Below the pieces are notes generated by a model. That model worked only from the letters and a program-made list of their open reading frames with translations. It was not told where the DNA came from and did not search any database. DNA of 63,500 nt, filler included. It is 5 parts of 5 records of this genome, joined end to end, with 100 filler letters (N's around TTAATTAATTAA, not from the genome) between each part and the next. Parts side by side here need not be neighbours in the genome. Positions count along the whole stretch, not along the records: positions 58,341 to 63,500 come from SRR31156797_6991; 4 more parts are not named here. The stretch is one strand, 5' to 3'. Positions 58,342-60,838 of the stretch are shown here, in pieces (position 1 is the first letter of the stretch; every line of letters starts with the position of its first letter). The position numbers were made by a program, and so were the translations under genes.

Positions 58342-58548
58342 TCGAGGGCCGAAATAACGGATGCAGCCATGGCCAATCGGGCCGAGTGTGTAATGCTGAA
58401 CAAAGGGCATTACATTACAAAAGCGGTAAAAATGCTGGATAAGATATTACGGCGAATGCAACGTTTCCAGAAAAAAAAGGATACTTTATTGCCCAAACTT
58501 GAAAATGCAGAAGGATTAGAACTTTCGCACAAAGAGTTTGATGTTTAG
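58342..58548 (+). CDS. Pyruvate kinase family protein, C-terminal fragment
   Basis: Hand translation [22 protein letters not shown]... matches the PK motif PTRAEVTD...D/ECVMLS/N. Confidence 0.8.
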
Positions 58549-59663
58549 TCGTCTTTGTGCACTTCGTATATTTTAACGGATCTGTCTTTCCCAAAAAACT
58601 TAACAAGATCAACATATTCGATCTTATACAGTTTTGTACTTTTTACCAGGCGTACTGCAAACTCGCGAGTAACCAAAATTTGTTTTTTATAACGTTTACA
58701 CTGCTTTTGAATTCGAGCAGCCGTATTTAGCACATCGCCATGAAAAGCCAATTCGCGTTTTACTTCTCCAACTTCTGTTGCCATAACTTTTCCTACATTT
58801 ATGGAAGCTGTAAAAACCGGAATCATTCCATATTTTTCCTCAAAATAGGCTTTCCGCTTACTCAATGCTTTTTTATACAAATAGAAAAAATCAACAGAAC
58901 GTTTGTAACACCTTCTCTTTTTGGCATCCCAGGTAATAACCACCTCATCTCCTACAAACTGATAAACCCTGCCACGGGTTGCCAACAAAGAATTGGAAAC
59001 ACACTTAAAACAATCCTGAATAAAATAACTATACAACTCGTGCCCCAGTTTTTCTGCCACCGCAGTTGACGACTGTAAATCCAAAAACATAAAAATATGT
59101 TCTTCCTCGCGGGGTTTCTGGTAATACCCCATCATAATTTTCCCCAAGGGAGCATAGCCAATCTGGTGCAACAAGGTATTAATTAACTGGTGTACATATC
59201 CTCCCACAAACAATACCAAAAGAAAAAACAAAATGGTTGAGTTAAATAAAAATCGTGGTAAATGCGAAACCGCTTCTAATAAAGAAAGATTCTTTTCTAC
59301 ACTATAATGTACGATTCCCAGCAAAACACTAATGGCGATAAAAACCATTGTGTCGAGCAGTACAACCCCAATAGCCAAACGACGAACTTTTAGGCTTTGT
59401 ATCAATCGGGGGTATATAAAATTAAGCGTAAACCAACTTATGGCTGCAAACACAGAAATAACCACCGATGAAAGTAATATCTCATCATACAGGAAATTCA
59501 TTCCTTTTGAAAGCATGTCGCCCATGTTATGATCGCGTGCTCCAAGCACTCGCATAAATATGGCAAAACGAATAACCAGGTTCCAATAGATTAATGTGAA
59601 AACCAACAGCTGAAGCTGGTAACGTCGCAAGGCATTTTTATATGTTCTGGTTAGTCTAGGCAT
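58545..59663 (-). CDS. Membrane-bound class III nucleotidyl cyclase
   Basis: About 4 N-terminal TMs; [31 protein letters not shown]. Confidence 0.9.
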
Positions 59664-59677
59664 TATTAATCCTAACG

Positions 59678-60838
59678 CTACATTTTAGATGCATAAACTA
59701 TCGTAAAAGCCAATACGGCAGCAATAAAACTAAACATAAAAAAATTATATGAATACCGTAGCAGTTTATACTTTTTGGCTAACACTTTACCCAGGTTATA
59801 TTGGTCTTTTATTAAATTTCCATACAAATAATCGTAATCCTTCATCATTTCTTTTACTCCCGACTCGTATTTCTGATAAGGCATTTTAAATATATTCCCA
59901 AAAAACAAAAGGTTTAATTTTTTGTTTTTCAAATCTTCGTCGCGGTAATTTCCATTACCAAATTTTGGGCGAACCGATAAAATGGCAAACACCAGCGAAA
60001 TCAAACATCCAACAATAAGTACCATGCCCGGGATTACAAAGTTGTGCTCGCTTGCTTTTAGTGTTAATGCACTTGTACTCATCAAAACCGATACAATAAC
60101 AGCATTAATCGTAAGCATTATATTGGCTTTGTTATCGGCTATCGAACTTAAATTTATCTGGTTACGCGCAGTTAACCGAAACATGGTTTCAATTCCGCGC
60201 GCAGTACTTTTGCTTGCCGTTTGAACCAAATCTTTTGGCTTATCTGCCGATAGTTTTTTTATTCTTTTCTCCACTTTTTTTACATTTTGAATTCGGACAG
60301 GTTCCAGATTCTCTTTTGCATAAGCGGTCTGAAACTCGATCTCTTTTATAAATCCAAGCGTTTGCTTCCAGTATTCCAGTTTAGAACATCTTCGTTCCAC
60401 AAAATTGCACATCTCCTTGCGTAACAGGTTCGAGACCTCCATAAAGTTTTCCATTCCGGTATGGGCATGGTCGGCATCTCCCAGAATCTGTTCCAACAAT
60501 GATTTTTTTGAAGCCCCAAGTTTTGTGGAACAAATACACTTTTCAACCTCGGCAATAAACTCCTCGTCAATATCCTGCTGACTTAGAAAATTGCGGGCTA
60601 TTTTACAACTTTCTGTTTCGTGGTCTTTTAACGAAACGGCATGCCCAATATCATGAAACCAGGCTGCCACAACGACAATTTCTTTTTCACGACCGGATAA
60701 TTGTTCTGCATCGGCAATTTTTTCCGCCACTTCAGCTACAAGCCGCGTATGTTCAATTGAATGATAAAATAGCAAGGAAGAAACTTTTTCTTCATAGTAT
60801 TTTATGGTATATGCTTTTACTTCATCAATAATATTCAT
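59678..60838 (-). CDS. HD-domain phosphohydrolase fused to Pycsar-effector-family (DUF5706/PycTM-like) transmembrane domain
   Basis: FYHSIEHT, AAWFHDIG, ILGDAD (HD); ADNKANIMLTINAVIVS, second TM, LLFFGN, KKYKLLRYSY + terminal TM (DUF5706). Confidence 0.85.
   Translation of the reverse strand: MNIIDEVKAYTIKYYEEKVSSLLFYHSIEHTRLVAEVAEKIADAEQLSGREKEIVVVAAWFHDIGHAVSLKDHETESCKIARNFLSQQDIDEEFIAEVEKCICSTKLGASKKSLLEQILGDADHAHTGMENFMEVSNLLRKEMCNFVERRCSKLEYWKQTLGFIKEIEFQTAYAKENLEPVRIQNVKKVEKRIKKLSADKPKDLVQTASKSTARGIETMFRLTARNQINLSSIADNKANIMLTINAVIVSVLMSTSALTLKASEHNFVIPGMVLIVGCLISLVFAILSVRPKFGNGNYRDEDLKNKKLNLLFFGNIFKMPYQKYESGVKEMMKDYDYLYGNLIKDQYNLGKVLAKKYKLLRYSYNFFMFSFIAAVLAFTIVYASKM

Follow-up and report, generated by a model that had tools for sequence, protein, structure and literature searches.

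A class III cyclase and an HD-PycTM membrane protein form a linked gene pair in Bacteroidota that probably serves envelope signalling rather than phage defence

The window analyzed here is a stretch of 63,500 nucleotides in which five unrelated contigs are joined end to end, and the locus under study lies only in its last piece (58341-63500, 38% GC). In this piece a gene for a class III nucleotide cyclase follows a gene for a membrane protein, here called HD-PycTM, that joins an HD phosphohydrolase domain to a three-helix transmembrane (3TM) module of the PycTM type. We consider it probable that the pair is the local form of a conserved Bacteroidota envelope second-messenger module built around the 3TM domain, and not a phage defence system. 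The gene pair is real and non-random, the locus belongs to the core genome and lies beside an outer-membrane metallophosphatase-Omp85 gene, and both co-occurrence and adjacency link the module to cyclases built in at least two unrelated ways. Functional coupling of class III cyclases with the 3TM module is supported because the two co-occur, because their genes lie close together in many genomes and because direct cyclase-module fusions exist in Balneolaceae. The pair is laid out as follows.

59678-60838, minus strand: HD-PycTM gene, 386 amino acids (aa) (open reading frame, ORF)
60239..60838, minus strand: HD phosphohydrolase domain, residues 1-200, cytoplasmic (PF01966)
59681..60205, minus strand: PycTM-type three-helix membrane module, residues 212-386 (PF18967)
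59664..59677, minus strand: intergenic spacer of 14 nt between the HD-PycTM and cyclase genes (sequence read)
58545-59663, minus strand: class III cyclase gene, 372 aa (ORF)
59139..59663, minus strand: N-terminal part of the cyclase with four membrane helices, residues 1-175 (hydrophobic segments and model)
58548..59117, minus strand: class III cyclase catalytic domain, residues 183-372 (PF00211)

The original prediction had placed an HD-DUF5706 gene 14 bp 5' of a cyclase gene on the same strand, and the ORFs bear this out; no terminator-like site was found in the 14-nt spacer between the two genes. The closest relatives come from Draconibacterium and Prolixibacteraceae (proteins with 77-82% identity), and the gene order of the piece is that of locus L001, a Draconibacterium chromosome.

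The frequency of the pairing was determined in a sample of 301 Bacteroidota genomes with 4-6 candidates scored per genome, and the counts per genome class were tabulated by hand among the matches listed. At a threshold of E<=1e-30 the cyclase family with four transmembrane (TM) segments, to which the window cyclase belongs, was found in 56/301 genomes, and 55 of these 56 also match the HD-PycTM profile. Expressed the other way, the four-TM cyclase is present in 55 of the 114 genomes with the module and in 1 of the 187 without it (Fisher p = 7e-27, a statistic that ignores phylogeny). By genome class the four-TM cyclase was present in the following numbers.

Fused HD-PycTM: 31/71 genomes
Stand-alone module: 23/37 genomes
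Adjacent separate genes: 1/3 genomes
Module with another N-terminus: 0/3 genomes
HD half only or weak match: 0/30 genomes
No match: 1/157 genomes

Among the 31 genomes that hold both a fused HD-PycTM protein and the four-TM cyclase, the two genes lie within 5 kb of each other in 19, against 0.16 expected under uniform placement, and the pairing is thus not due to chance. Thirteen of these 19 close pairs are convergent and come from small genomes (2.4-2.9 Mb), so that they may reflect a single lineage.

A second, differently built cyclase is linked to the same module. Among 16 loci in which the module is a stand-alone gene, six carry a gene for a 646-aa protein (Guanylate_cyc, FlgO-like and TPR domains, here cyclase-TPR) between the Omp85-metallophosphatase and module genes, all on one strand. 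Full-length cyclase-TPR (>=948 bits) is encoded in 36/301 genomes, including 35 of the 37 stand-alone-module genomes, and in half of them, 18 genomes, its gene immediately precedes the module gene in the same orientation; in one genome cyclase-TPR, module and HD are three consecutive genes. Direct fusions of Guanylate_cyc to PycTM were found as proteins of 356 aa (L112:3245-4312:+) and 362 aa (L113:2852-3937:-). Both Pfam domains occur together in at least 55 cluster representatives, of which those with a name come mostly from Balneolaceae, Balneola and Rhodohalobacter, and the cyclase domain of the Balneolaceae fusions carries the motifs of the TPR family. When both cyclase families and the fusions are counted, a linked-type cyclase is present in 72 of the 114 module genomes vs 4 of the 187 genomes without the module. 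In a tree of 37 cyclase domains the core four-TM family (14 rows, including the window cyclase; support 99/100), the three true PycC proteins (100/99) and the TPR-linked domains (100/100) form separate clades, with the deep nodes unresolved.

The surroundings of the HD-PycTM gene were compared in 80 related loci, 51 of them with full 6-kb flanks, by clustering the ORFs and scanning the cluster representatives against Pfam. A gene of about 1215 aa with Metallophos and Omp85 domains, corresponding to the large ORF of the window, is present in 48/80 loci by clustering and in 51/80 by tblastn, and a gene of about 300 aa for an SdiA-regulated/phytase-like propeller in 48/80. PPK1 (14/80), His_Phos_1 (11/80), a long pyruvate kinase (10/80), PAP2 (7/80) and DUF2652 (6/80) also recur. 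A cyclase-domain gene lies within 6 kb of the HD-PycTM gene in 19/80 loci, and its placement takes six forms or more: immediately downstream in the same orientation in four loci, which are the closest relatives of the window, directly downstream and convergent in four, directly upstream in two, at the head of a co-directional cyclase-propeller-Omp85-HD-PycTM string in three, after ppk1 in two, and otherwise placed in the remaining loci. The tree of HD-PycTM proteins groups by taxonomic family and order, and the label for cyclase adjacency changes on it at least five times, across Prolixibacteraceae, other Bacteroidales, Chitinophagaceae and Ignavibacteriota.

These neighbourhoods bear on the main rival explanation, that the two genes share no messenger: the HD-3TM protein would work with the Omp85-metallophosphatase, the propeller, PPK1, SixA-like and PAP2 proteins in phosphate, polyphosphate or envelope metabolism, and the cyclase would regulate something else and be carried along by synteny. 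We think this somewhat unlikely. The constancy of the Omp85-metallophosphatase and propeller genes speaks for it, as do the recurrent PPK1, His_Phos_1 and PAP2 genes and the 61/80 loci without a cyclase-domain gene within 6 kb; in addition, the commonest arrangement in the sampled genomes is convergent, and the two genes are therefore not on one transcript there. However, three separate cyclase clades (four-TM, TPR and other TM) are linked to the module, cyclase and module are directly fused in some proteins, and the linkage persists through many rearrangements. The four-TM cyclase also shares its genome with the module in 55 of 56 cases and was found in none of the 30 genomes in which the match is weak or confined to the HD half.

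The HD-PycTM protein itself belongs to a large family: of the 8000 candidates scored, 5463 match it at E<=0.001. Its HD domain matches PF01966 with 42.5 bits (cut-off 22) and its module matches PycTM PF18967, formerly DUF5706, with 106.6 bits (cut-off 27.2), with TM segments at 240-258, 271-289 and 366-384. The structure model (pLDDT 84.2) consists of a helical HD domain (1-200, mostly >89), a disordered linker (202-209) and the 3TM module. In 74 orthologues the HD residues H26, H30, H62, D63, H73, E74, D121 and D123 are conserved to >=95%. The module is the most constrained part of the protein, with a mean pairwise identity of 55% and 33 of 175 columns >=95% identical, compared with 36% and 15 of 200 columns for the HD domain. 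Its invariant polar residues, which include R221, D235, K237, N239, N309, N315, D345 and K356, sit in the helix before TM1, the loop after TM2 and the helix before TM3, segments that would be cytoplasmic if the HD domain is. Such a set would be easier to reconcile with a ligand site that has been kept than with a simple anchor. When the module was aligned by hhalign with the PycTM proteins of three true Pycsar systems, a probability of 96.9% was obtained (E 1.3e-10, 130 columns, 17% identity), and the motifs around ADxKAN and NLLFFGN, like the K-[YF]-K helix, have counterparts in the true PycTMs, with whose motifs several of the invariant polar residues line up. Judged from these alignments, the module is a real although distant homologue of them.

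For the HD domain the best fold matches are 2pq7 (VIA Z 17.7) and YpgQ (17.3), within an uncharacterised/YpgQ-type group at 17.7-16.3, and 2pq7 is also the best sequence match in the PDB (E 3.8e-5). Class I cyclic nucleoside monophosphate (cNMP) phosphodiesterases (PDEs) align over about 190 residues with Z scores of 16.5-15.3, among them PDE10A (16.5), PDE6C (15.8) and PDE5 (15.6). The protein has no Pfam PDEase_I match, Foldseek with the whole model gave no match at E<=0.001, and the 3TM part has no solved relative in the Foldseek and VIA structure lists. The fold of the HD domain is thus compatible with a YpgQ-like hydrolase as well as with a class I PDE and does not point to one substrate.

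The alignment with class I PDEs, together with the conserved metal ligands of the HD domain and the fact that the module can be preceded by either an HD or a cyclase domain, would suit a second rival explanation. Here the HD domain is a cNMP phosphodiesterase acting on the cyclase product, the 3TM part only an anchor or oligomerisation scaffold for nucleotide enzymes, and the receptor is located elsewhere. We regard this as improbable. Conservation is higher in the module than in the HD domain, and the invariant polar residues of the module, if cytoplasmic, exceed what an anchor needs. Among the 37 stand-alone-module genomes, 33 show a single match (no HD half, E<=1e-10), yet 35 keep a cyclase. 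The best folds are YpgQ-type hydrolases and not PDEs, by a difference of about one Z unit. Finally, the homologous PycTM and PucTM proteins are described as nucleotide-responsive effectors of Pycsar and Pucsar (PMC11224242; bioRxiv 10.64898/2026.08.12.744502).

The cyclase has hydrophobic segments at about 19-37, 62-80, 100-118 and 139-161, and its AF2 model shows long helices spanning residues 2-41, 62-88, 93-123 and 142-168. This four-TM N-terminus, the presumed input domain, has no Pfam match and belongs to no known family. The catalytic part matches Guanylate_cyc PF00211 over residues 187-361 with 25.2 bits (cut-off 21.9), and the model (pLDDT 80.9) shows an ordinary class III fold. The best folds in the PDB are OaPAC (E 3e-13) and CyaB (TMt 0.84), with bPAC and CyaC also among the nearest, and OaPAC is the best sequence match as well (E 8.5e-7). 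PycC chains gave no PDB sequence match to the cyclase at E<=1 and are not among its 50 best folds.

The sequence motifs FLDLQSST at 193, YQFVGDE at 234 and a 12-letter stretch at 306 hold the residues on which the original prediction had rested, and these were read correctly: both metal-binding aspartates (D195 and D239), N313 and R317 are present, while in the base-selecting pair Gln235 takes the place of Lys and Ala306 that of Asp. Across 14 relatives D195, Q235, D239 and R317 are invariant and N313 is nearly so. Both the cyclase and the HD domain accordingly look active by their residues. Class III cyclases canonically use Lys with Asp or Thr for ATP and Glu with Cys for GTP, and the window cyclase has neither pair. 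Gln stands at the Lys position in 19/19 locus-linked cyclases, in 24/24 linked rows when two families are taken together, and in both fusion proteins; in the unlinked cyclases the position is Gln in 3/10 and Lys in 7/10. Gln235 was considered as a sign of a new nucleotide and found insufficient, as 3/10 unlinked cyclases share it. Moreover, Rv0386 of M. tuberculosis has a Gln/Asn pair and mainly produces cAMP, so that a new product is not to be predicted from Gln alone. The base specificity is not readable from the cyclase sequence. In PycC the selectivity residues vary between clades (PMC11224242), and they are not mappable onto the window cyclase.

The original prediction had also allowed for a role in defence. 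In such a Pycsar-like abortive-infection system, phage would trigger the cyclase, and the HD-PycTM protein would bring about the death or arrest of the cell. Some features do resemble Pycsar. The HD-PycTM protein contains a PF18967 domain and scores 76 bits on the PADLOC PycTM model, so that a PycTM-type protein adjoins the cyclase. The order of TM effector and cyclase and their tight spacing match three true Pycsar loci of the same phylum. Relatives are also named 'Pycsar system effector family protein' in NCBI and UniRef. This domain model, however, favours the other family: PF18967 gives 99-114 bits for the housekeeping proteins and 37-62 bits for the three true Pycsar effectors, and the name has therefore been transferred to thousands of non-defence proteins.

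The cyclase does not follow the resemblance. On the PADLOC PycC models it reaches 38.5, 21.7 (PDLC00766) and 19.3 bits, whereas four class III domains of a generic kind, taken from related genomes as controls, score 52-87 bits and five relatives of the window cyclase 13-53 bits. The PADLOC PycC match was for this reason rejected as evidence of Pycsar, since generic cyclases score higher. True PycC (PDLC00766, 133-304 bits) was found in 3/301 genomes, each time as a protein of 230-246 aa abutting a PycTM of 161-172 aa. In the tree of cyclase domains the window cyclase, with its four N-terminal TM segments, falls into a well-supported clade separate from PycC, and no PycC chain is among its structural or sequence matches. 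A sporadic, fast-evolving system in a mobile context is not what is seen either. The module is present in 114/301 genomes, its mean identity of 55% compares with 24-37% among true PycTMs, the protein tree follows taxonomy, and the locus keeps a fixed synteny with pyruvate kinase, Omp85, propeller and, often, ppk1 genes. No defence families were seen among the recurrent neighbours in the Pfam scan of representatives from the 80 loci. In genome G231 a true Pycsar system is found alongside the housekeeping pair of cyclase and HD-PycTM genes. A defence role of the pair is thus very unlikely, and the housekeeping signalling that the prediction had named as the other option fits a slow-evolving, taxon-grouped family in conserved synteny.

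The three true Pycsar pairs of the sample lie in L086 (1498-2686), L087 (990-2175) and L088 (1423-2682). L088 adjoins a long ORF whose translation is, by eye, reminiscent of an N6 DNA methylase.

For the favoured reading, an envelope second-messenger module, the following course of events is conceivable. The cyclase would sense a membrane or envelope cue through its four-TM region and would make a 3',5'-cNMP. By analogy with Pycsar and Pucsar, the 3TM module may be the receptor of this nucleotide, acting as a regulated channel or switch and not as a suicide pore. The fused HD domain could either end the signal as a phosphodiesterase or be a regulated output that acts on nucleotides or phosphate compounds. 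Of the self-contained writer-reader-eraser circuit originally proposed, the functional unit stands on co-occurrence, varied adjacency and fusion in one lineage, and the defence role finds no support, the cyclase not being PycC-like and the locus lying in syntenic core genome.

Several observations weigh against this reading. The steadiest neighbours of the HD-PycTM gene are the Omp85-metallophosphatase and the propeller, with the cyclase near only 19 of 80 loci, and in the Cytophagales-rich half of the HD-PycTM tree an adjacent four-TM cyclase is seen in only 3/53 loci. Neither cyclase family was matched in 42 of the 114 module genomes, and the co-occurrence may only mean that both families are common in the same orders. 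The cyclase-module fusions fit equally well a module that serves as input or anchor for nucleotide enzymes. In one locus, L116 (2249-5442), a cyclase-TPR gene stands beside an HD-only gene without a detected module. As to the immune proteins, the preprint on Pucsar calls the ligand position in PucTM uncertain (bioRxiv 10.64898/2026.08.12.744502), and binding of a cNMP to a PycTM-type module is not known to have been located even for them. PucTM is reported to form a hexameric cylinder.

A broader proposal is possible, though we hold it tentatively. PycTM-type 3TM modules could be old, phylum-wide cNMP-gated inner-membrane switches of Bacteroidota and Ignavibacteriota, each served by its own class III cyclases with a base pocket of the Gln type, which possibly make a nucleotide other than cAMP; these switches would control envelope or phosphate physiology together with the outer-membrane phosphatase-Omp85 protein. 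They would then not be primarily immune, and the TM effectors of Pycsar and Pucsar would be a fast-evolving offshoot of this housekeeping system, or else the source of it.

The variant loci show further details. The cyclase-TPR protein of L116 has His and not Gln at the Lys position, and on the opposite strand of this locus the translation of a 164-aa ORF starts with an RHAKS motif like that of histidine phosphatases (SixA). In three genomes with cyclase-TPR but no module match, a hidden module gene was not found at E<=1e-3. In L112 and L113 the gene upstream of the fusion has a weak CotH-kinase-like match. A 432-aa protein in L114 (L114:2368-3663:+) has a PycTM-type module at 312-418 behind an N-terminus of about 300 residues without Pfam match, and this N-terminus may represent one more domain to which the module is fused. 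A second type of stand-alone module locus (L096-L103 and L109) shows fixed synteny with unrelated metabolic genes, among them those for a thioredoxin-like protein, a PurU-like formyltransferase, a glucose/sorbosone dehydrogenase, a homogentisate dioxygenase-like protein and fumarylacetoacetase; the cyclase-TPR gene lies 7-17 kb away.

The DUF2652 proteins (PF10851, 114.7 bits) adjoin HD-PycTM genes in L020, L030, L031, L045, L050 and L056 (e.g., L031:310-1269:-). Their consensus begins with the class III-like motifs 'F.PDISGFT' and 'EIEGDA', and Pfam presumably places the family in the cyclase clan. As a candidate third cyclase family, the six neighbours were compared by hhalign with the cyclase alignment, which gave a probability of 0.4% (E 0.15), and no claim is made for them.

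The 5.2-kb low-GC piece at 58341-63500 encodes four genes according to ORF calls and homology. Beside the pair, the following features were identified.

58342..58548, plus strand: long-form pyruvate kinase, C-terminal 68 codons, the gene being truncated by the contig end
60839..60964, no strand: intergenic region from which the HD-PycTM and outer-membrane protein genes diverge (sequence read)
60884..63499, plus strand: metallophosphatase-like/Omp85 outer-membrane protein, N-terminal 872 residues, divergent from the HD-PycTM gene and leaving the window

The pyruvate kinase fragment is 88% identical to residues 555-622 of a 622-aa protein at the same position in L001, which is a pyruvate kinase by NCBIfam NF011314 (745.8 bits, cut-off 642). 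The gene is convergent with the cyclase gene, with an overlap of 4 bp, and is a syntenic neighbour outside the cyclase/HD-PycTM module. The outer-membrane protein gene likely starts at the signal-peptide Met 27 codons inside the listed ORF, where a hydrophobic signal-like stretch follows an internal Met. Full-length relatives of this ORF have 1205-1216 aa with Metallophos PF00149 in the N-terminal and Omp85 PF01103 in the C-terminal part; the fragment in the window itself has no Pfam match.

The remainder of the window is unrelated to the pair. The five contigs, with GC contents of 31%, 41%, 49%, 65% and 38% and possibly from a mixed bin, are separated by four artificial spacers (N runs around TTAATTAATTAA) at 26224-26323, 46782-46881, 52613-52712 and 58241-58340. 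Since the window is a concatenation, neighbours across the spacers are uninformative about each other. On the 65% GC contig a 1470-aa ORF (52657-57069, minus strand) whose translation shows an HRDLKPSN motif like that of protein kinases and, behind it, a long stretch rich in repeats lies downstream of a 248-aa ORF (57153-57899, minus strand).

To our knowledge, cyclic mononucleotide second-messenger signalling is little understood in Bacteroidota, and a conserved unit of cyclase, receptor and hydrolase would offer a concrete entry into it. Immune and non-immune versions of one membrane module become directly comparable, with one sampled genome carrying both, and the comparison bears on whether abortive-infection effectors arose from ordinary physiology or were tamed into it. 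There is also a practical consequence for public annotation, as thousands of these proteins are called "Pycsar system effector family protein", which in Bacteroidota would inflate the counts of defence systems. In the accessible portions of the PycTM/Pycsar literature, the supplementary table of bioRxiv 10.64898/2026.08.12.744502 aside, we found no description of the HD fusion or of a housekeeping cyclase-PycTM pair (PMC13069673, PMC11224242). The survey in the Pucsar preprint is stated to have taken in physiological cyclases without conflict-effector associations (bioRxiv 10.64898/2026.08.12.744502).

Among known systems, the TM forms of Pycsar and Pucsar (PycC/PucC with PycTM/PucTM, 'pJV1-spdB3 family 3TM') are alike in that a class III-type cyclase gene adjoins the gene of a homologous three-helix module, and in three true Pycsar systems of the same phylum the gene order is the same. 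In contrast to these, the window cyclase is a four-TM membrane protein of another clade, the module bears an N-terminal HD hydrolase, and the pair belongs to the slow-evolving core genome with envelope and phosphate neighbours and not to a sporadic island. CBASS '2TM' effectors are more remote: PADLOC 2TM models match the module with 26.6-53.6 bits, which is weaker than the PycTM models (best 76 bits), no CD-NTase is encoded nearby, and the context is that of housekeeping genes.

The sister forms, cyclase-TPR with the stand-alone module and the Balneolaceae fusions, share the same 3TM module (E about 1e-65 to the window profile) and the link to a class III cyclase in which Gln stands in for Lys, and often follow the same Omp85-metallophosphatase gene; unlike the window pair, they have a soluble N-terminal cyclase with FlgO-like and TPR parts or a direct fusion, and mostly lack the HD domain. 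With the bacterial class III adenylyl cyclases OaPAC, bPAC, P. aeruginosa CyaB and Spirulina CyaC the window cyclase has the fold and the full metal/Asn/Arg set in common, but Gln235 and Ala306 replace the adenine-selecting Lys and Asp/Thr, and the four-TM N-terminus is of no known family. The HD domain, finally, resembles the YpgQ-type hydrolases (2pq7, Lin1889 3b57 and B. subtilis YpgQ 5dqv) in its all-helical HD fold (Z 17.7-17.3) and its H..H, HD and D ligands, and the class I PDEs (PDE10A, PDE5, PDE6) in its fold; it differs from both by its fusion to a membrane module, at an identity of only 16-26%.

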